Positions 1-23,154 of a stretch of DNA of 63,733 nucleotides are shown in pieces. The DNA comes from a virus. Lineage: Duplodnaviria > Caudoviricetes. The DNA lies in the IMG/VR virus record IMGVR_UViG_3300032722_000019, positions 1 through 63,733 of that record. The stretch is one strand, 5' to 3'. The position numbers were made by a program, and so were the translations under genes. The notes beneath the pieces were generated by a model, which was given only the letters and a program-made list of their open reading frames with translations, was not told where the DNA came from and made no database searches. Positions within the stretch are counted from its first letter, which is position 1. Every line of letters starts with the position of its first letter.

Positions 1-195
1 GGGCGGATGATTGTTCACGGTCACCCCCTGCGTGTAGTCGTCTATGACCCAGGCCCCCGGGCCGGTCTGCGTGATGCGCATGCCGCACCCGCCCACGTCG
101 TAGCTGAAGGACTTCGCGCCGTAGATGGTCACGTTACCCTCCTTGTCGATGGCGATCCTGACCGTGGAGCCGTTGGGGCCCGGGCCGTTCTCTCC
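1..195. repeat. Terminal direct repeat, left copy (circular overlap)
   Basis: 1-195 matches 63539-63733 except G128 vs A63666. Confidence 0.95.
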
Positions 196-633
196 GTCGT
201 CCCTAAGGATCACGCCGTTGGGGCCGTTGATCTCTGTGGCCTCGGGGTCGTCCGCCGGCCTGAGCTCGCCGCCGCCCAGCGCCAGGAAGCCCACCGCGCT
301 GAGGTTGCCCTGGGGGGCCATGGTGGCGGTACCGCCGCCCAGTCCCGAGACCCCTCCCAGGTAGACGTCGCAGGGCACGAGCATCCCCGGGTCGCCCGGC
401 TGGATGGGGAAGCGCACGTACCTCGGGTAGAGGACTGGCACCGTCAGCTGGGGGAACTGCTGGACGGGGTCCTGGACGTCGATGTCCACGGTCACGACGG
501 TCCCCGTGTCGTCCACGGAGGAGACCGTGCAGGGCAGGCTCTTCCCCAGCGTCTCCAGCGCGTGGTCTATCATCGCCTGCACGTAGTACTGCAGGTTCTT
601 GATCAGCGGGCTCTTCTGGGAGTCGTCGGCCAT
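1..633 (-). CDS. Baseplate spike/gpV-like protein, 5' part; continues across the circular junction to a stop at 63506
   Basis: ATG at 633 reads MADDSQKSPLIKNLQ...LPCTVSSVD...VRFPIQPGDPG...GGVSGLGGG, open to base 1 and on through 63538-63506 (TGA); lies directly after the hub gene. Confidence 0.7.
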   Translation of the reverse strand, partial: MADDSQKSPLIKNLQYYVQAMIDHALETLGKSLPCTVSSVDDTGTVVTVDIDVQDPVQQFPQLTVPVLYPRYVRFPIQPGDPGMLVPCDVYLGGVSGLGGGTATMAPQGNLSAVGFLALGGGELRPADDPEATEINGPNGVILRDDGENGPGPNGSTVRIAIDKEGNVTIYGAKSFSYDVGGCGMRITQTGPGAWVIDDYTQGVTVNNHPP

Positions 634-11478: not shown

Positions 11479-12495
11479 CTAGTAGGCCATCGAGATGAGC
11501 AGCAGCGCCTGGTAGCGCGGGGCCCAGCCCGAGGAGATGCGCCACTCCATCATGAAGTGGGTCATGCCCATCGGCATCGGCGAGATGATCTCGGTCGGGG
11601 CCGCCTTGTCGCAGTACTGGGTCAGGCAGGCCGCCCAGTTGGGAGCGCCGCCGCCCCACACGTTGGTGTTGTGGCCGGTCGCGGCGGGGACCGCCACCTC
11701 CGGCATCGCGAGGATCACCAGGTCGGTGCCGCCCGAGCCCTTGCCGATCAGGGTATCGTCGTACACCCAGATCAGGTCGTCCCCGTTCTCCATCAAGATT
11801 TCCTTGACGGTGCCGCGGGTCGAGGCCGTGCCCGCCCCCTCGCGCTGGAACTGCGTCAGCTGCACTACGTTGTACTCGAACGAGCCGAGGATGCGCTGCG
11901 GACCGAGGATGGTGAAGCTGCGGCCGATGCCCAGCTGCAGGGTGGCGGTCTTGAGCGCCAGGATCTGCTGCGACAGGAAGAAGGCCATCTGGCCGTTGTC
12001 GTAGCTGCGGGCGGTGTCGTTGCCGAACGAGTCCGGCGGCAGGTTGATGGCCTGCGCGCCGGGCGCGTTGACCAGGCCCTCGCCCATCTCCGGGTGTAAC
12101 CCGTAGAGGCAGGCCTCGCGGGCCAGCTGGTTGTTGCCCTGCCGCATGCCGTTGCGGTACTCCTCCACCACGGAGAGGCCCCAGCGGCCGCCGGCCGCCA
12201 CGTCGTGGTGGTCGTACTGGTTGGCCACGCGGAGCAGGTAGGTCGGCGTGCTGATCATGGACGCGAGGATGTCCACGCTCGGGAGCTCGTTGAAGGCCGA
12301 CTGGCCCGCGGCCACCCGGTTGCGGAGGTTGAGCTGCTTGGCGTAGACCAGCAGCGAGTCGCTCTCGAGCCGCGTCCGGAGCTGCCCGTCGGCGAGCAGC
12401 TCGATGAAGCCGGAGGCCTGCGTCTGCTGACGCAGGAACTCGGGCTCGATGAACGAGGGGTTGAGGGTGACGAAGCTAGCGGCTTGCAGAGACAT
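11479..12495 (-). CDS. Major capsid protein
   Basis: 338 aa, after protease/scaffold and decoration genes; NPSFIEPE start and RISSGW C-terminal motif. Confidence 0.8.
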   Translation of the reverse strand: MSLQAASFVTLNPSFIEPEFLRQQTQASGFIELLADGQLRTRLESDSLLVYAKQLNLRNRVAAGQSAFNELPSVDILASMISTPTYLLRVANQYDHHDVAAGGRWGLSVVEEYRNGMRQGNNQLAREACLYGLHPEMGEGLVNAPGAQAINLPPDSFGNDTARSYDNGQMAFFLSQQILALKTATLQLGIGRSFTILGPQRILGSFEYNVVQLTQFQREGAGTASTRGTVKEILMENGDDLIWVYDDTLIGKGSGGTDLVILAMPEVAVPAATGHNTNVWGGGAPNWAACLTQYCDKAAPTEIISPMPMGMTHFMMEWRISSGWAPRYQALLLISMAY

Positions 12496-13452: not shown

Positions 13453-15468
13453 CTAGCCGCGGCGCGCGCCCGGGGTGGGGTTGATCCAGCGCACGCCGCG
13501 CTGGCCGACCGGGCCGGCCAGGGGCCGCATCCAGGCCGCGGTCTCCCCGTAGAACTCGTTGAAGGTGTGGCCGCCGTCCTGGCGCGAGCGCATGACGAGG
13601 GTGCCCTTGGCGATGTCCGTGGGGTTGCGGGCCGCGGTGATGGCGTCGGCGATGATGTCCGCCTCGGCCATCTCGAGCAGCGAGTCATTGACCGCGAGCA
13701 GGCCGATGTCCTTGTCCTTGTACTTCGACGAGTGCTTCTGGAGCTCGCGGAGACGCTGCATGCGGTACTCGTGCAGGGTCTGGCCGAGCAGCGGGGCCGG
13801 GGCCTGCCCGCCGTGCGCGCTGTAGGCGGAGTCGAAGCGGGCCTGGGCCTGCAGGAGCGCCGAGCGGCTCTCGTGGTTGTTGTTCCGCATGGCTCCCTCC
13901 ACCTGGCCCTTGAGCTTGGCCAGCTCGTCGCGCAGGTCTGCGATGGTCTGCGCGTCCTTCTTGGCCTTCTTCTCCTCTTCCTCGGCGTCCTTCTTCTCCT
14001 TGGCCTCCTCCTCGGCCTTCTTGTCGATGTCCTCGGCGTCCTTCTTCTCCTTCTCCCAGGCCTCCTCGGCGTCCTTGCGGCGCCGCTTGGCGCTATCGGC
14101 GGCCATGTCCTCGGACTCGCCGGCCTCCATCATCGCGTCCTTGCACGCCTTCTCCGCGGCGTCCATCTTCTCCTTGTGCTCCTCCTCGCTCTCCTCGGAG
14201 TCCTTCTTGGGGAACTCGAAGGCGTCGGCCTTGGCCTTGGCGTCCTTGCGCTCCTTCTCCTCGGCCGCGTCGACGCGGGCCTTGAGCTGGGCCACGACGT
14301 CCTTGACGCCGACCAGGCCCTCGAGCAGCTTGTCCAGCTTGCCCTCGTCGCCCTTGGACACGCTGTCGGCACGGGCCAGGAGGGCCTCCGCCTCGGCCAC
14401 GCGGGTCGCGTAGCCCGCCTCGGTCTCGCCCTCGATGCGCTTCAGTTGGATCTTCATCTCTCCGTCTCCGTCTGTTCTGGTGTGGATGTTCTCTACGCCT
14501 GTCGGATCACCGCCCTTGTCCCAGACGCCGCGCTCGCAGATAGCGAGGTGATCCAGCAGGCTGGGCTTTCCTTCTACTATGACCTGGGTGCCGCCCTCCA
14601 GCGTGAGCGTGGTGTTGTCGGCCCCCAGGAGGACCCCCGGGCTGGTGGACAGCTGCGTCTCGGTCAGGGCGCGCGCGGCGTCCTGGTCGTAGACGCGGGC
14701 GATGCCCCAGGGCTCCATCTCTCCGTTCTCGTCCGGGCGCAGGTAGGTGATCATGATCGCACCGATGCTGCGTTCGGCGTACTGCCGAGTGTTGAGGATG
14801 GCCTCCTCGGGGTGCATGATGATCACGGGCAGGCCCTGCGCTCGGCGCAGGAACTCCGGGCTGTTGTAGTCCTCGGGCCGGCGGTAGACCACCTCGGCCT
14901 TCTGGACGACCTTGCCCTCCGCGTTCTTCTTCTCGCCCCGGATGGCCGTGCCCACGCCGCTGATGCGCAGCGCGAACAGCCAGATGTTACCGTACTCCTG
15001 AGGGCTGACCAGCTCGCCGTCGCGGATGGCCTCGGCCACCTGGAGCTCGTCGTTCATCGTGAAGCGCCGCAGCGCCACCGCGCAGCCGGGGTGGAGGGGG
15101 GCCGGCGGGCTGCCGATGTCGGCCCAGGCGTAGCCCAGGTGCTCGTCGTTGAGCACCGGAGTGAAGTCCTCGGCGTCCCGGACCAGGAAGGTCGTGAAGT
15201 CCACCTGCTCGCCCTGGGGAGGCGTGACCAGCGGGCTGTCCTCCTGCGGACGCAGAGAGCGGGTCCAGAACTTGAGCTGGTCCTCCTTGGCCTTGAACCC
15301 GGTCTCCTCCTGGGTCTCCCGGATGGCCGTCTGCTGGGCGGTCTCCTCGCCCTCGCGCCGGCCGCCGGGGAAGGCCCACATCCCGGGGTAGTCCGAGCCC
15401 GGGCCGCGCTGCAGGAACAGCGCCTGGCCATGTTTGTTGAGGATGAGGAGGCCGGCCGCGCGAATCAC
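13453..15468 (-). CDS. Nudix hydrolase-prohead protease (DUF2213-like)-scaffold fusion
   Basis: Full Nudix box GRREGEETAQQTAIRETQEETGF; protease motifs GLPVIIMHP, LSTSPGV, DHLAICERGVWDKGG; charged coiled-coil C-terminus; possible internal scaffold start at ATG 14457. Confidence 0.85.
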   Translation of the reverse strand: MIRAAGLLILNKHGQALFLQRGPGSDYPGMWAFPGGRREGEETAQQTAIRETQEETGFKAKEDQLKFWTRSLRPQEDSPLVTPPQGEQVDFTTFLVRDAEDFTPVLNDEHLGYAWADIGSPPAPLHPGCAVALRRFTMNDELQVAEAIRDGELVSPQEYGNIWLFALRISGVGTAIRGEKKNAEGKVVQKAEVVYRRPEDYNSPEFLRRAQGLPVIIMHPEEAILNTRQYAERSIGAIMITYLRPDENGEMEPWGIARVYDQDAARALTETQLSTSPGVLLGADNTTLTLEGGTQVIVEGKPSLLDHLAICERGVWDKGGDPTGVENIHTRTDGDGEMKIQLKRIEGETEAGYATRVAEAEALLARADSVSKGDEGKLDKLLEGLVGVKDVVAQLKARVDAAEEKERKDAKAKADAFEFPKKDSEESEEEHKEKMDAAEKACKDAMMEAGESEDMAADSAKRRRKDAEEAWEKEKKDAEDIDKKAEEEAKEKKDAEEEEKKAKKDAQTIADLRDELAKLKGQVEGAMRNNNHESRSALLQAQARFDSAYSAHGGQAPAPLLGQTLHEYRMQRLRELQKHSSKYKDKDIGLLAVNDSLLEMAEADIIADAITAARNPTDIAKGTLVMRSRQDGGHTFNEFYGETAAWMRPLAGPVGQRGVRWINPTPGARRG

Positions 15469-16349
15469 TTACCCTTAGCCTCGTCCTGGGCCTTGTTGAA
15501 GCCCGAGGCCCAGTTGTAGGCCGCGTCGCTGCCCTCGCTGTAGGGATTAGCCTGGCGAGTCTTGCCGGCCTTGAACGCGGCAGCGCCCTCCTCGGCGTGC
15601 TTTCGGTTGTAGGCGACCGCGTCCTTCTTCCCCATCCGGTCGACCCGGCGGGCCACCTCGGCGATCTCTCCGACCACGGCGTCCATCTCGGCCACGCAGT
15701 CGTCGAGGGTGGCGTCCTTCTTGGAGCCAGACTCCATCTTCCTGATAGCAGCCTCGGCCTCAGCCTTCGTCTTGTACATCGCGTCGCCTGCATAGTCGCC
15801 GTTCTTGTCTGCGATGTACCAGGTGTGGGAGTGCCCTTCGCGGGCAAGGTCGGGGTTCTGCTTAGCCGTGTACTGGGCCGCGTCGTTCTTATTCGTCGCC
15901 ATCAACTTCTCCACTTCCGTGCGGACCGCGCCCTCGTCCAGCGCACGGCTCAGGGGAATCTCGAAAACCTTGGTGCCCAGGGGGACCTTGACCTGGACCA
16001 GCCACTTGTCGGCGGTCTGCTTGAGGCCGGTGATCTGGCCTGCATCAGAGCGGGTGTCCTTCCACTCGACCCGGATCATCGGGCCGCCGCTCGTCAGGCC
16101 GACGGCAGAGGCCTGTCCCGAGCTCTCCGCCTTCTCGAGGACCTTGCCTTTGCGGCCGTCGAACATGTACGTCTTGCCCACCTGGAGGCTGTTGTACATG
16201 GACTGGCGGACGTTCATCCAGCTGGTCACGTCCCCGCGTGCCTCGGAGTAGGCGATGGCCACGGCCTGCTTCTCCGGTTTGCCGGCATGGCGCTCGGTAG
16301 CGATGTTCTTGGAGATCGTAGCCTGGGAGGAGCCGGACAGGAGGGGCAT
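15465..16349 (-). CDS. Modular head-associated protein (putative polyprotein)
   Basis: Start reassigned to ATG 16349 (MPLLSGSSQATISKNIATE...KQAVAIAYS, a recurrent small phage domain); modules end in RGD/RSD/KND/KKD/KKD. Confidence 0.7.
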   Translation of the reverse strand: MPLLSGSSQATISKNIATERHAGKPEKQAVAIAYSEARGDVTSWMNVRQSMYNSLQVGKTYMFDGRKGKVLEKAESSGQASAVGLTSGGPMIRVEWKDTRSDAGQITGLKQTADKWLVQVKVPLGTKVFEIPLSRALDEGAVRTEVEKLMATNKNDAAQYTAKQNPDLAREGHSHTWYIADKNGDYAGDAMYKTKAEAEAAIRKMESGSKKDATLDDCVAEMDAVVGEIAEVARRVDRMGKKDAVAYNRKHAEEGAAAFKAGKTRQANPYSEGSDAAYNWASGFNKAQDEAKGK

Positions 16350-16444
16350 CAGAGACTCCTGATCACGCCGATCAGGATGATGGCGAGCAGGGAGCAGAAC
16401 ATGGTCCGGGTGACCAGGTCCGCGCGCCGCCAGAGCCGGATCAC
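16349..16444 (-). CDS. 31-aa membrane peptide
   Basis: MIRLWRRADLVTRTMFCSLLAIILIGVIRSL; GTGA and TGATG coupling on both sides. Confidence 0.5.
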   Translation of the reverse strand: MIRLWRRADLVTRTMFCSLLAIILIGVIRSL

Positions 16445-16686
16445 GACAGCGCCAGCATGTTGGTGGCCGTAGTCCCCGAGGTGTTGATCTCGGAGAAAGC
16501 CACCGGGAACACGCCGACCGGCACCGCCTTGAACAGGACCGCGTTGTCCTGCCCGGCGGGGACGCCGGTGATGTCCCCCGAGACGCCCACGTAGATCGCG
16601 GTGCAGGAGAACGGGGTGTCCAGCACCACCGCGGCCGCGCGACCGAAGTTGGAGACTGGGCTGGGGATGAACGGCAGCTTAGCCAT
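16441..16686 (-). CDS. Head spike base-like protein (resembles RcGTA Rcc01079 family)
   Basis: AIYVGVSGD...F.AVP.G..P...GTTATNMLAL pattern. Confidence 0.55.
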   Translation of the reverse strand: MAKLPFIPSPVSNFGRAAAVVLDTPFSCTAIYVGVSGDITGVPAGQDNAVLFKAVPVGVFPVAFSEINTSGTTATNMLALS

Positions 16687-17524
16687 GGGCGGCCCTCTTG
16701 CGTGCGGCGTTCTCCAGGAACTCCTCGCCCTTGGGCGTGAGGTAGTCCCTGGGCAACTGCCGGATGTTGTACAGGTACTGGTAGAAGCAGCGGCAGAACG
16801 GCTCCTCGGCCGGCTGCGTCATCTCGTCGGTGCACTTGGCCGCGCCCTTCCTGACGTAGCCCTCCTTGATCGCCCAGCTGTCGCGGACGAGGTAGGGGGC
16901 CCTGAGCGACTCGATCTCGCGGTCCTTGTGGTCCTCACGATAATCATAATTGGCTTGATGCCAGTGCGACTTCCAGACCGCGGCGATGGCGTTGCCCTGC
17001 TGGGCGAGCACCGCGTTGATGGACGAGACCAGCTTGTGGCCCTGGTCCGTCAGCACCCGGCGCTCCTCGAAGCGGAGGCCTGCGATACCCTTCTTGACGC
17101 CCTCGCGGACCTCTCGCTTCTTGACCGCGTCGCTGCCCCCGGCGGGGATGCTCGTGGCCCAGCCCGCGAACCGCTGCTGCATCTTGAGGACCACGGAGTC
17201 CTTGTTGAGCCTGATCAGGTTCAGGCTCGCCATGATCCTCTTGTCGAGCTCGGCCCTCAGGTAGGGCTTGATGCGCTCCAGCGTGAAGCGCGGGACGCCG
17301 GGGTGGTACCGCAGGACGCGGGCCTTCTCCACCATGTCGTTATACAGCCCGATCAGCCCCTTCTCCAGCATAGCCCTCATCTGGGCCTCTGGGGTGAAGG
17401 AGCGCCGGGCGGCCTCCGCGAGCAGTCTCTCCCACTCGGTGATCTGCTCGGGACTGAGGTAGCCCCGGTCCTCCAGGTCCTGCATGGCCGCGGCCAGGAC
17501 CTGGCTGAAGGTGGGCTCGGCCAC
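16679..17524 (-). CDS. Head morphogenesis protein (MuF/SPP1 gp7-like)
   Basis: DQGHKL, WKSHW, YREDH and PAEEPFCRC motifs. Confidence 0.8.
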   Translation of the reverse strand: MAEPTFSQVLAAAMQDLEDRGYLSPEQITEWERLLAEAARRSFTPEAQMRAMLEKGLIGLYNDMVEKARVLRYHPGVPRFTLERIKPYLRAELDKRIMASLNLIRLNKDSVVLKMQQRFAGWATSIPAGGSDAVKKREVREGVKKGIAGLRFEERRVLTDQGHKLVSSINAVLAQQGNAIAAVWKSHWHQANYDYREDHKDREIESLRAPYLVRDSWAIKEGYVRKGAAKCTDEMTQPAEEPFCRCFYQYLYNIRQLPRDYLTPKGEEFLENAARKRAAHG

Positions 17525-18177: not shown

Positions 18178-18402
18178 CTACTCTCTAATGCCGGACCTGG
18201 CCTGGCGCATCCTCCGGTAGGCGATGAGCCAGTTGTCCATGAACGCCTCGTAGGAGCCGATCACCCGCGCCCGGGCGGCCTCGGCGGCCCCCTCGTCGCC
18301 CACCAGGCAGGCGGCCTGGAACTCGTTGAGGCCCTCGCAGGCGGCCTGCTGGCAGTTGGTCGCCAGCCGGAAGCTCTCCTGGATGTCCTCGACCAGGCTC
18401 AC
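18178..18402 (-). CDS. Hypothetical protein
   Basis: Start reassigned to GTG 18402 overlapping portal stop (MSLVEDIQ). Confidence 0.55.
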   Translation of the reverse strand: MSLVEDIQESFRLATNCQQAACEGLNEFQAACLVGDEGAAEAARARVIGSYEAFMDNWLIAYRRMRQARSGIRE

Positions 18403-19880
18403 GCGGCGTCCCTCTGGGGGCGGGCCTTGATCATGCGCAGGACGGAGGCCTTGAACTCCTCCATGGCGTCGTTCTTGGGCAGGCCCTCGGGCTGGGGCTG
18501 GAAGTCCGGGGCCTCCTGCTTGACCAGGCCCTCCTCCAGGTTGAGCTCCAGGTCGTGGCCGCCGAACAGCAGCTTCATCTCGTTGATGTTCTGCTGGACG
18601 AACTGGAGGAGCTCCCTCTGGTTCTCCTCGCCGAACTTGTCCAGCAGCACCTCGAGCAGGGCGATGAGCGCGCGCAGCCGGACGTCGTCCACCTTGACCA
18701 GCTCGCTCGGGGGCTCGCTGAGGTAGTTGGGCCAGGAGCACTCGAAGCTGTTCTTCCACTCGTAGAAGGCCTCCTCGTAGGGCACGCCGCCGTACTCGGC
18801 CGGGAACATCTTCTGCACCAGCTTGTAGAACTCCGGGTTGACCGCCCGGTGGAAGCAGATGTTCTCCATGAACGTGTAGAGAGGGTTGAGGTCCTCCCGG
18901 ATGCCGTCGATGTAGCGGGCCACCATCTTGGCGTCCTCGCTACCCTCGCCGAAGCCCTTCGCGAAGGTCTCGTCGTTGAGCAGGATGGCGGGCATAGGGA
19001 CCGCCGAGGCGGTGTTCTGGAGGCAGTTCTTGCGGGCCAGCTCGTAGGGGCCCTGCAGGTTCTGGAAGTTGAGGGTCTCGATCTCCTCGTCGGGGGAGAT
19101 GCTCAGCACGTCGGAGGTGCGGGCCTCGCCGATCAGGCTCCGCTTGAGGCCATACATCCACTGCATCGCGTTGTCGATCACGGAGCCGGGCTGCTGCAGC
19201 TTGGCCACGATCACGCCGGACTTAACGATGATCAGGTCGTCCGTCCGCATGCTCTGCAGGAAGGTCTTCATCGGGTAGATCGCGCGCTGGAACACGCTGC
19301 GGCCCGTGAACCCGAAGGTCGAGGACTGGTAGTCGATGTAGATGGGGGCCTCGTTCATCACGATGCACACCCGGTTGCGGTTGAACAGCTTGCCCGAGAC
19401 CCGGATGGTCACCGGGTGCTGGAAGTCCATGCTGAGCGGGTCCTGGTTGAGAACCAGGCTGCCCGCCGTGTTCAGGGGGTCCATCGTGTTGAAGCTGATC
19501 TGCTTCTTCCACAGGTCCCTCAGGTTGAGGGGCTCCCTGGGCTCCTCGTCCTGGATCATGGTGGCCAGCGCGCCGATGCCGTAGATGCGGGCGTGACGCG
19601 CGGCGTTGCGGATGACCTTGTCGGACCCCATCTTCTTCCACTCGCGGAGGTAGGCCGCCTTGACCATGTCCGGCGCGGTGGGGATGGCGACCTCGCGCGG
19701 CTGGCTCTGGGCCATCTCGAGAGGCTTGTCGACGATCTTGCGCCCCCAGGGGTGCTGGAGGTAGAGGGTCTTGCAGAGCTGGTAGGAGGGCCCGTAGCCC
19801 GGGCGGATGCCCTCGTTGTCCCCGAGCAGGGTCATCAGCTCGGAGCTCATAGCAGAGCCGTTGAGGGAGACCACGCTCAC
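18399..19880 (-). CDS. Portal protein (DUF1073-like)
   Basis: 493 aa after terminase; SYQLCKTLY..HP, DPLNTAGS, GFTGRSVFQR and GFGEGSEDAK motifs. Confidence 0.85.
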   Translation of the reverse strand: MSVVSLNGSAMSSELMTLLGDNEGIRPGYGPSYQLCKTLYLQHPWGRKIVDKPLEMAQSQPREVAIPTAPDMVKAAYLREWKKMGSDKVIRNAARHARIYGIGALATMIQDEEPREPLNLRDLWKKQISFNTMDPLNTAGSLVLNQDPLSMDFQHPVTIRVSGKLFNRNRVCIVMNEAPIYIDYQSSTFGFTGRSVFQRAIYPMKTFLQSMRTDDLIIVKSGVIVAKLQQPGSVIDNAMQWMYGLKRSLIGEARTSDVLSISPDEEIETLNFQNLQGPYELARKNCLQNTASAVPMPAILLNDETFAKGFGEGSEDAKMVARYIDGIREDLNPLYTFMENICFHRAVNPEFYKLVQKMFPAEYGGVPYEEAFYEWKNSFECSWPNYLSEPPSELVKVDDVRLRALIALLEVLLDKFGEENQRELLQFVQQNINEMKLLFGGHDLELNLEEGLVKQEAPDFQPQPEGLPKNDAMEEFKASVLRMIKARPQRDAA

Positions 19881-21259: not shown

Positions 21260-21502
21260 CTAGAAACCCCACTTGGACAACTCTGGGCACTGCGAGGTGT
21301 CGTACACGAGCCACTCTCCGGGCCGGAGGGCCTCCCCGTCGCAGGGGCGGACGTCGTAGCCGCCGGCCGGGTCCCTCACCAGGTCGCAGGAGCGGGCAGT
21401 GACCGGGTCGGGCGGCACCTGGGGCTCGGTCAGGACCACTTCCTGACGCTCCGTGATGGGGTGGGGGAAGAACTCGTCCGGAGTCTTCGTGAACTGCAGC
21501 AT
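21260..21502 (-). CDS. Hypothetical protein
   Basis: ATG 21502 overlaps terL stop (TGATG); MLQFTKTPDEFF. Confidence 0.55.
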   Translation of the reverse strand: MLQFTKTPDEFFPHPITERQEVVLTEPQVPPDPVTARSCDLVRDPAGGYDVRPCDGEALRPGEWLVYDTSQCPELSKWGF

Positions 21503-23154
21503 CAGAACCCCTTGGTGTTGCCGAACGCCAGCGCCACGCCGTAGCACATGCAGTCGAACATCTCGTCCTCGTCCTCCGGCGTGCCCTTCTTCATGCGGTA
21601 GTTGGTCGCCTGGTAGAAGAAGTGGTTGCGCACCCGGCCGTTGAACGCGCAGGTGTGGTCGAAGGCCGGCTGGCTGACCTTGAACAACCCCTGGCTGATG
21701 TAGCCGGACACCGACAGTGCGCGGCCGTCCTTGCCCAGGGCCGTGAGCTCGCTGGGGACGGGCTTGACCCGCCAGCCCTTGCGCTGGGCGTGCTGGATGA
21801 GCGCGACGCCGGAGTCCTTGTCCTCCACGTAGCAGTAGGTCCAGCCCCCGCGGGGCTTGACGATCTTCGCCAGCTCCTCGCCGCGGCGCAGGATGCCCGG
21901 CATCCACGCGGTCAGCAGGTCGGCCGATATCTTGTCGTAGGCCCACTCCAGGGCCACCAGCGAGGGCTTGGGGTAGCGGGTGTAGGCATAGTAGACCACG
22001 CCGGTGCCGTCGTGCTTCTTCTCCGTCTTGGAGGCGGTGTCCGCCACCGCGTAGACCGCGTCGCACACCCGGGGCCACTCGGCCGGCCGGTGCTCTACGC
22101 GGGGGACCAGGTCGCCCTTGCCGTCCGGCACCAGCTCGTTGGTGGGGCGCGGTACGAGGAACTTCTCCTCCGCGAAGTAGTACGAGCCCGCGCGGGCCTT
22201 GGCCCGCTGGTTGTACTGGGTGTCCCAGGCGAAGTCGGACGTGATCTTGAGCGCCGCGCACTTGGCGGCGTCCCAACGCTGGGGGAACAGCAGCTCGCCG
22301 TCCTCGCGGCGGGGGTCCTCGTAGTAGGGCGTCTTGACGACCAGGGAGCGCGTGTACTCCATGGGGAGGACCAGCTTGACCCACTTGTCGCCGCCCTGGG
22401 CCTCGATCTCCTCGGCCACGCCGCACAGGTCGTCGGTGGCCAGCCGGTGCATCATCAGGACCATGAGGTCCTTCATCGGGTCGTTGAGGCGGCTCTGGGC
22501 CGACTCCTTGAAGATGCGGGTGGTGGTCTCTTTCTCCGCGGCGGACTCGGCCTGCTCCGTGGAGTGCGGGTCGTCGATCAGCAGCCGGTTGCCGCGGCCC
22601 GCGGTCAGTCGCGAGATGGGGACCGCCTTGCGGCCGCCCTTGTAGGTGTTCTCGAACTCCTCCTCGGCGAAGGAGGTCAGCTCCACCTGGGGCCAGTGCT
22701 CCTGGTACCAGTCGCTGAGCACCAGGTCGCGGTGCTTGCGGGAGTCGCGCCGGGCGTAGCCGGCCTCGTAGGAAGTGGTGAAGTAGCGCAGGCCTGGGCT
22801 GAGCATGGGCCCCCACTCCCAGGCGGGGAACATCACGGAGACGCTCAGGCTCTTCATCGTGCCCGGCGGCTGGTTGATCATCAGCCGAGTGATCTCTCCT
22901 CGGTGGGCCGCCTCCAGGTGCTCTGCGATGGCGTCGATGTGCCAGTTGTGAAAGTACTTGGCGGAGGGCTCCGGCACGTGCCAGGCCCTGCGGACGAAGG
23001 TGGAGAACCGCTTGCAGGACTCCATGACCTCGAGGCGCTTGTCCTCAATGTAGGCCCGGTTTTGCTCCCTTATCTTCTTCAGCCTCATCATCCCGTCGCG
23101 CAGCAGAGTTAGCTTCTGCTCCCGCGACAGCGAGCTCAAGTCGCTTGAGGGCAA
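21502..23154 (-). CDS. terL: Terminase large subunit
   Basis: INQPPGTMKS Walker A, LLIDDPH Walker B, MHRL coupling motif, nuclease DTASK...HD and DEMFD; exact start uncertain. Confidence 0.92.
   Translation of the reverse strand: MPSSDLSSLSREQKLTLLRDGMMRLKKIREQNRAYIEDKRLEVMESCKRFSTFVRRAWHVPEPSAKYFHNWHIDAIAEHLEAAHRGEITRLMINQPPGTMKSLSVSVMFPAWEWGPMLSPGLRYFTTSYEAGYARRDSRKHRDLVLSDWYQEHWPQVELTSFAEEEFENTYKGGRKAVPISRLTAGRGNRLLIDDPHSTEQAESAAEKETTTRIFKESAQSRLNDPMKDLMVLMMHRLATDDLCGVAEEIEAQGGDKWVKLVLPMEYTRSLVVKTPYYEDPRREDGELLFPQRWDAAKCAALKITSDFAWDTQYNQRAKARAGSYYFAEEKFLVPRPTNELVPDGKGDLVPRVEHRPAEWPRVCDAVYAVADTASKTEKKHDGTGVVYYAYTRYPKPSLVALEWAYDKISADLLTAWMPGILRRGEELAKIVKPRGGWTYCYVEDKDSGVALIQHAQRKGWRVKPVPSELTALGKDGRALSVSGYISQGLFKVSQPAFDHTCAFNGRVRNHFFYQATNYRMKKGTPEDEDEMFDCMCYGVALAFGNTKGF

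Follow-up and report, generated by a model that had tools for sequence, protein, structure and literature searches.

A phage head-module gene predicted to encode a chain of exchangeable mini-proteins, probably cut at Lys/Arg-x-Asp joints by a prohead protease

The cleavage motifs of the T4 and phiKZ prohead proteases end in glutamate. In T4, phiKZ, and SPN3US, the prohead protease processes head-internal proteins at a short motif, sometimes at several sites, and T4 propeptides target proteins into the prohead core (PMC10052503). Polyvalent proteins, which are mosaic multi-domain chains linked to MuF or portal genes, have also been proposed to undergo proteolytic release (Iyer et al. 2017, PMC5512222). 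Here we describe a gene for a protein of 294 amino acids (aa), called the cargo gene below, at 15465..16349 on the minus strand of a complete 63.7-kb virus record (IMG/VR record IMGVR_UViG_3300032722_000019; Duplodnaviria, Caudoviricetes); the whole stretch of 63,733 nucleotides (nt) is referred to as the window. We consider it reasonably probable, at about 0.6, that its product is a polyprotein made up of six small mini-proteins, each folding on its own, and that the candidate prohead protease encoded beside it cuts this polyprotein at predicted Lys/Arg-x-Asp joints.

What carries this reading is the modularity of the protein, the enrichment of the motif, the coincidence of motif and unit border, the exchange of cassettes among relatives, and the agreement, at the level of the protease family, with one sequenced cut site. 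We imagine that the cargo protein is made together with the protease-scaffold protein, through translational coupling, and enters the prohead, where the DUF2213-type protease would cut it after Asp at [KR]xD sites followed by a small residue. At these same sites the protease would also detach from its scaffold and break that scaffold down. Cutting of the cargo protein would yield a phrog_2423 hairpin, a beta-barrel, two small alpha/beta units, a helix, and an RMF-like unit, which are the modules that other phages carry as separate tiny genes or as attachments to portals and proteases. Fragments retained in the head might then be delivered into the host, a last step that we regard as tentative.

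Units, joints, and motif enrichment

Several features of the sequence indicate that 15465..16349 encodes a genuine protein. The open reading frame (ORF) starts with ATG at 16349, preceded by AGGAG; its stop and the GTG with which the protease-scaffold gene begins overlap by 4 nt; GC content at third codon positions (GC3) is 0.88; and comparison with a close relative on metagenomic contig L008 shows an excess of synonymous over non-synonymous codon changes in the conserved units (9/7, 7/4, and 6/4). The gene and its units are as follows, a slash marking the proposed cut here and below and pLDDT standing for the predicted local distance difference test score.

15465..16349, minus strand: candidate cargo polyprotein gene, 294 aa (P0001), its stop overlapping the start of the protease-scaffold gene
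16230..16349, minus strand: unit 1, residues 1-40, phrog_2423 helical hairpin (E 1.8e-16) ending in RGD/V
16044..16229, minus strand: unit 2, residues 41-102, predicted small beta-barrel (pLDDT 93-97) ending in RSD/A
15882..16043, minus strand: unit 3, residues 103-156, three predicted strands and a helix, ending in KND/A
15714..15881, minus strand: unit 4, residues 157-212, predicted strand-strand-helix, ending in KKD/A
15621..15713, minus strand: unit 5, residues 213-243, amphipathic helix LDDCVAEMDAVVGEIAEVARRVD, conserved in 8 cargo proteins, then RMGKKD/A
15468..15620, minus strand: unit 6, residues 244-294, RMF/CrpP-like two-helix unit

A preliminary description of this locus, made from the letters alone, divided the protein into modules of 40, 62, 54, 56, 31, and 51 aa, the first five ending at Lys/Arg-x-Asp, and both the lengths and the ends hold. 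The motif [KR]xD occurs at residues 38-40 (RGD/V), 100-102 (RSD/A), 154-156 (KND/A), 210-212 (KKD/A), and 241-243 (KKD/A), with a sixth occurrence at residues 235-237 (RVD/R). An AlphaFold model built from a 23-row alignment (pLDDT 74; predicted template-modeling score, pTM, 0.37) consists of separate domains. The proposed match between domain borders and motifs is seen in this model at D40, D102, D156, and D212, each of which lies in an inter-domain loop with a dip in pLDDT, and not at D243, which lies in a predicted helix.

The six units, 31-62 aa long and near neutral (net charge -3 to +3), are all unrelated to each other, include no recognized enzyme, and lie next to MuF. Residues 1-38 align with positions 1-38 of the 52 in the phrog_2423 profile (E 1.8e-16), which places unit 1 in that family. 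For unit 6, 39 of 53 positions align with the RMF/CrpP profile (E 3.2e-5). It scores under the curated cut-offs (24.3 versus 27.9 bits for PF04957 and 16.9 versus 28 bits for NF041886), although its homologue P0056 (phmmer E 4e-10 to the cargo protein) passes the Pfam RMF cut-off with 28.2 bits, and P0055 passes it as well; we therefore call unit 6 RMF-like and do not file it as a member, and ribosome binding by it is putative at most. Structural look-alikes of unit 2 are weak and KOW/SH3-like, the ESM Atlas giving only weak small-barrel ones, and a sequence search of the PDB with the unit-2 profile gave nothing significant. Foldseek with the cargo model against the PDB and BFVD gave no match at E of 0.001 or below, the best rows being eIF5A/EF-P-type barrels at E of about 0.02.

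Enrichment of the motif over composition was named as a test in the preliminary description and is found for [KR]xD[AS]. The cargo protein has 4 such sites against 0.63 expected from shuffles (p=0.003), and the protease-scaffold protein has 11, all between residues 366 and 546, against 1.03 expected when only its charged region (residues 330-560) is shuffled (p<=2e-4). Every scaffold site named earlier is present; RKDA, named once, occurs twice, which brings the total to 11. The reversed motif occurs 0 times in the cargo protein and once in the protease-scaffold (1.0 expected in the scaffold), a Glu variant is absent from the scaffold (1.6 expected), and no other protein among ~70 crude ORF calls of the window has more than two [KR]xD[AS] sites. 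We infer from these patterns that the motif sites are used as cuts in this phage.

The motif common to the cargo protein and the protease-scaffold here is also present in the scaffolds of five relatives. There are 8 sites in Shewanella phage QDWS (0.98 expected) and 8 in Pantoea phage PdC23 (1.17 expected), whose protease-scaffolds are 37-43% identical to the window protein in the enzyme half and in which two motif positions are conserved, one directly after the protease domain and the other before the C-terminal domain. Contigs L010 and L028 have 9 and 11 scaffold sites, respectively; in the two L009 pieces, 5 sites are present in the downstream scaffold ORF.

Across 59 homologous proteins, 104 [KR]xD[AS] sites were counted where 33.5 were expected. 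Outside the stretches that align to the query there are 66 sites against 24.0 expected, with the reversed motif at 21 against 23.8. A count of 54 proteins, without P0053, P0055, and P0057-59, gave 103 against 30.9, and these five are restored in the 59-protein count. P0040 and P0054, matches of the representative search described below, are repeat proteins, were judged spurious, and are excluded from the counts. Ala occupies the position after [KR]xD (P1′) in 122 of 318 cases, a 3.3-fold excess over background that is not seen after [KR]xE. Several different N-terminal leaders all finish in basic-x-Asp, and in one homologue, P0060, the joint is A-K-D/A in place of [KR]xD[AS].

Exchange of units among relatives

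The evidence from relatives supports a view of the cargo gene as a string of autonomous, exchangeable units with borders at the Asp motif. When 1.84 billion representatives were searched with residues 41-294, there were 37 matches, each to only one or two units. Taking these together with matches from a word-index search, the local alignments of homologues end at cargo residues 38-44, 96-104, 153-157, 206-211, and 240-253. The whole cargo protein found no relative among viral contigs, a search with the unit-2 alignment gave one locus, on a 118-kb contig, and a metagenome scan for cargo relatives gave only the 1.8-kb contig L008, which carries P0002.

L008 has the same arrangement as the window, its NUDIX gene being 94% identical in nucleotides and the stop-start overlap with the protease-scaffold gene being kept. 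Units 1, 3, 4, and 5 of its cargo protein are retained (33/40, 44/54, 55/56, and 24/31 identities; 77-98%), and units 2 and 6 are replaced by unrelated sequence (11/62, or 18%, and 14/51, or 27%), the changes beginning right after D40, D102, and D243. Two proposals of the preliminary description are thus borne out: homologues do swap modules at xD/A-type boundaries, units 2 and 6 being exchanged in L008 at Asp joints, and the protein can be called an exchangeable cassette array, with autonomous units, borders at the Asp motif, and swaps in L008 and in other homologues. Directly upstream of the L008 cargo gene (151-441, plus strand) there is also a 96-aa Cys/His-rich ORF, a second variable insert in the slot; the matching stretch of the window has no ORF of 50 aa or more on the corresponding strand.

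Other homologues rearrange the same parts. P0003 is without unit 2, and its unit 1 follows a different leader, after DKGD/A; in P0004 unit 2 precedes unit 1; and in P0029 and P0038 unit 6 stands before the unit-5 helix, the reverse of the arrangement here. Unit 3 begins directly after ARGD/ or SRKD/ in 6 homologues, and unit 4 was found only in the close relative P0002, with 55 of 56 residues identical. Elsewhere unit 2 occurs as lone ORFs of 53-69 aa, at C termini, and within chains of 700-900 aa, and P0048 has it inserted between its portal and InPase domains.

A similar variability is seen in the slot itself, between MuF and the protease. In related phages, recognized by their MuF, protease-scaffold, p288, and capsid genes, it holds 0, 114, 288, 294, or 550 aa of cargo. 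The cultured relatives QDWS and PdC23 have no cargo there, L028 has a leader fused to the protease at this position, L010 has a cargo protein of 114 aa, and L009 has a 550-aa chain with 12 motif sites. Motif sites in L009 and P0060 are followed by Pro/Gly-rich stretches.

Some further recurrent elements were noticed in these chains. In P0060 (681 aa, from a metagenome), an A(R)AKD/A joint recurs about 10 times between unrelated units after the unit-1 leader, often followed by VTPIPV, making it the clearest polyprotein-like case seen. The pattern H(P/D)(R/K)xxxG(K/Q)F, with a run of Gly/Ser after it, is found within or at the end of P0003, P0008, P0013, P0016, P0049, and P0052. The QDWS protease-scaffold (L005, 4860-6707) has a different N-terminal leader, ending in KARAD/A before the NUDIX domain, and a unit similar to this leader ends the long chains P0021 and P0032 and may be another mobile mini-protein.

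Unit 1 is the most widely traced of these modules, phrog_2423 being present in at least 536 IMG/VR loci. Of 80 unit-1 leader loci examined, the pattern used for the carrier ORF missed 20, and the analysis covers the other 60. In 52 of the 60, unit 1 is a stand-alone protein of 42-77 aa with a Lys/Arg-rich tail. Such stand-alone genes have a head or packaging neighbor in 18 of 30 loci examined (three of the 18 in the order MuF, mini-protein, scaffold, capsid) and are located away from head modules in 12 of the 30. In five of the 30 (L032, L040, L052, L059, and L061), a 90-105 aa protein of phrog_7595 adjoins the phrog_2423 gene. DUF2213 proteases that begin with unit 1 occur in Acinetobacter phage AB1 and in its relatives, as well as in P0010, P0018, P0061, and L028, and unit 1 is fused to topoisomerase IB in P0013. 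As a capsid-targeting candidate, the unit-1 leader has in its favor that it recurs on protease N termini, yet 52 of 60 carriers are stand-alone mini-proteins.

The TLS cut site and the surrounding head module

Coliphage TLS provides an experimental anchor for the proposed joint. The N terminus of its mature capsid protein, determined by Edman sequencing, is ASDMGIW (PMC11447400). In the TLS capsid protein ASDMGIW follows GAKND, and the K-N-D-A so formed is the only [KR]xD[AS] in that protein. Among the 120 TLS capsid homologues listed (of 470 found), K-x-D is kept at the cut position in 117, comprising 101 with KxD/A by pattern and 16 more read in the printed rows; one of the remaining three has RxD/K, one has KxD/V, and one is without the region. 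The P2 residue varies among those listed. TLS gp33 matches DUF2213 (E 4e-23) and phrog_530, of which it is the archetype (E 4e-108); its motif sites number 9, where 0.8 would be expected. The cargo protein carries the motif of the scaffold here, identical to the sequenced TLS capsid site, and the window protease is a remote candidate for the same family as the TLS protease.

In the window, the head module runs on the minus strand in the order large terminase, PF06381 portal, two small ORFs, MuF-like gene, spike-base-like gene, cargo gene, protease-scaffold gene, a gene for a 288-aa protein, and capsid gene. The cargo gene lies within this module, beside the protease-scaffold gene, and L009 and L010 use the same slot. 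The neighboring features are as follows.

21502-23154, minus strand: large terminase of the head module
18399-19880, minus strand: PF06381 portal of the head module
18402..18476, minus strand: portal C-terminal extension beginning at KND/A, missing from three of four related portals
16679..17524, minus strand: MuF-like head morphogenesis gene, the upstream border of the variable cargo slot
16441-16686, minus strand: 81-aa protein of the RcGTA head-spike base family (NF048002, E 7e-9, above the curated cut-off)
13453..15468, minus strand: 671-aa fusion of a NUDIX domain, a DUF2213-type candidate prohead protease, and a charged scaffold
15103-15462, minus strand: NUDIX hydrolase domain, residues 3-122 of the 671-aa protein, its Nudix box looking intact by eye
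14269..14337, minus strand: scaffold helix LDKLLEGLVGVKDVVAQLKARVD, aligned earlier to unit 5 (7/23 identical, not significant)
11479-12495, minus strand: PF09950-like capsid protein

The KNDA that had been described near the portal C terminus is at residues 469-472 of 493. The spike-base-like 81-aa protein sits between MuF and the cargo gene and is not there in the cultured relatives.

The 671-aa protein matches phrog_530 (E 1.6e-6) and phrog_6216 (E 2e-126), and a sequence search of the PDB with its protease domain gave nothing significant. A preprint describes a T1-like protein made of an N-terminal serine protease and a C-terminal helical scaffold, the catalytic serine being known there only from the modelled Bas11/Bas13 protein (10.1101/2023.05.21.541620). 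The NUDIX fusion is common to a number of cultured phages (Shewanella QDWS, Pantoea PdC23, Klebsiella Chronis/RothC/D, and Yersinia vB_YenM). Since there is no [KR]xD[AS] between the NUDIX and protease domains, the NUDIX domain may stay attached to the protease in the prohead.

The preliminary description also proposed that unit 5 mimics a helix of the scaffold. The 23-residue alignment on which this was based exists, with 7/23 identities; it is not above chance in this phage. Among shuffled scaffolds, 46% gave at least 7 identities to the unit-5 helix and 2.4% reached its BLOSUM score of 27. BLASTP of the unit-5 helix against the scaffold was not reported as significant, and a hidden Markov model (HMM) of the 8 cargo-helix homologues had no match to the scaffold of this phage. 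A scaffold-mimic helix in this phage is rejected on these three grounds. The idea finds support, at the level of profile similarity, in one relative, L010, since an HMM of the L009, L010, and L028 scaffold helices matches the 114-aa L010 cargo protein with E 1.5e-8 among 4,819 sequences. The L010 portal C terminus has KTD/A and a similar helix.

Competing readings and comparison with known systems

A number of points weigh against the proposal of a protease-cut polyprotein. Cleavage in this phage and in the NUDIX-DUF2213 clade is a prediction from sequence. The assignment of the neighboring gene as a prohead protease is a remote one made from family membership: the 671-aa protein scores 21.1 bits against Pfam DUF2213 (PF09979), for which the cut-off is 22, hhalign of the protease alignment against TLS gp33 was not significant (probability 0.2), and a model of the protease domain predicted from 7 sequences had a pLDDT of 40 and was unusable for fold comparison. 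Within the cargo protein, the RGD/V joint has Val, not Ala or Ser, after Asp, and D237 and D243 lie within a long predicted helix instead of a loop. The capsid protein of this phage has no [KR]xD at all, so it offers no internal positive control. Enrichment is uneven across homologues, with none in P0018, P0048, P0049, AB1, L077, and L078; because the DUF2213 proteins AB1, L077, L078, and P0018 are among these, the Asp rule is not family-wide. Finally, helix capping in helical scaffolds could partly explain a basic-x-Asp motif followed by Ala, and pieces as small as 3-7 kDa might be lost from the capsid in the manner of scaffold peptides.

Some of this would fit an uncut, multi-domain, head-associated protein, in which the motif is a linker or helix-capping signature of the lineage and the units act as one polypeptide. 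The predicted status of cleavage and the position of D243 in a continuous predicted helix favor such a protein, as do the frequent start of a Glu-rich helix after the scaffold motif and the several homologues and other DUF2213 scaffolds that are without the motif. We nonetheless consider it unlikely: three of the five cargo joints precede beta-strands in the model, counter to helix capping; Pro/Gly-rich stretches come after the L009 and P0060 sites; a basic P3 residue is coupled to Ala or Ser at P1′ when the residue between them is Asp, and not when it is Glu; and the identical motif is the sequenced cut site in TLS. Another possibility is that the protein is indeed cut, as an accessory scaffold or substrate, and that its fragments leave the capsid or serve assembly only, without delivery. 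In favor of this are a motif held in common with the scaffold, for which degradation and expulsion are expected, the small size (31-62 aa) and near-neutral charge of the units, and the fact that QDWS and PdC23 do without any such gene. Against this, the units are mobile, take up folds, and stand alone as genes in many phages, one of them is RMF-like, and relatives join units to topoisomerase IB and InPase domains, which is typical of delivered proteins (PMC5512222); we consider such a role without delivery quite improbable.

We think it very improbable that the gene encodes a cytoplasmic accessory (moron) protein that lies in the head cluster and never enters the capsid. The insertion is missing from cultured relatives, and stand-alone unit-1 genes do lie outside head modules in 12 of 30 loci examined, but L008 retains the overlap between the stop of the cargo gene and the start of the protease-scaffold gene, L009 and L010 carry their cargo in this slot too, and units are fused to portals and proteases in relatives.

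If the cargo protein is a protease-cut polyprotein, one can envision a broader picture, which we offer as speculation with the odds against it. DUF2213-type head proteases of a large phage group would read an Asp code ([KR]xD before a small residue); strings of interchangeable mini-proteins would be packed, released in the capsid, and injected with the DNA; and orphan 40-70 aa head-module genes, such as those of phrog_2423, would be free-standing injected mini-effectors, with the RMF-like unit possibly acting on host ribosomes. The proposal gives a simple, testable cutting rule for a widespread and little-studied head protease family, anchored on one published N terminus, and for the first time places several orphan phage mini-protein families, including phrog_2423, in a functional context. 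Should the units reach the host, the joints would be a natural, exchangeable way of loading small proteins into capsids, relevant both to early host takeover and to loading phage capsids of laboratory strains with chosen proteins.

How does this locus compare with the systems described so far? TLS is like the window in its PF06381 portal, MuF, DUF2213/phrog_530 protease-scaffold (a remote assignment in the window), and PF09950 capsid protein, and in a scaffold rich in K-x-D-A/S; it is unlike the window in having no cargo gene in the slot, in the region read, and no NUDIX domain. The TLS protease trims a capsid propeptide, whereas the window phage is without such a propeptide. In its accessible sections, the TLS paper states no Asp rule (PMC11447400), and we found no statement of one in the literature on DUF2213, prohead-protease motifs, and Asp-specific cleavage, subscription papers being outside the scope of that search.

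T4 gp21 with IPI-III and Alt, and SPN3US gp245 and phiKZ gp175 with the ejection proteins of those phages, resemble the proposal in having an acidic residue before the cut and substrates packed in the head, from which propeptides are removed (PMC10052503). Their protease families differ from the DUF2213 type of the window, and their substrates are single proteins with a propeptide, whereas the proposed substrate here is a chain of unrelated mini-proteins that would be cut throughout. Polyvalent proteins share with the cargo protein the joining of unrelated domains in one chain, the linkage to MuF or portal genes, and mosaic evolution, and P0048, a relative, joins a portal to InPase in the way described for them (PMC5512222). 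The cargo protein is unlike them in its units of 31-62 aa with no recognizable enzyme, and its release is proposed to be by the head protease at a short conserved joint, rather than by a built-in peptidase domain (PMC5512222). Neither "RMF" nor "ribosome modulation" occurs in the accessible text of the polyvalent-protein paper (PMC5512222); the RMF/CrpP family (PF04957, NF041886) is a free bacterial protein, whereas unit 6 is the tail of a candidate polyprotein in a phage head module. The processing proposed here would therefore differ from what is known in the family of the protease, in the Asp before the cut, and in a substrate made of tiny, non-enzymatic, individually mobile units.

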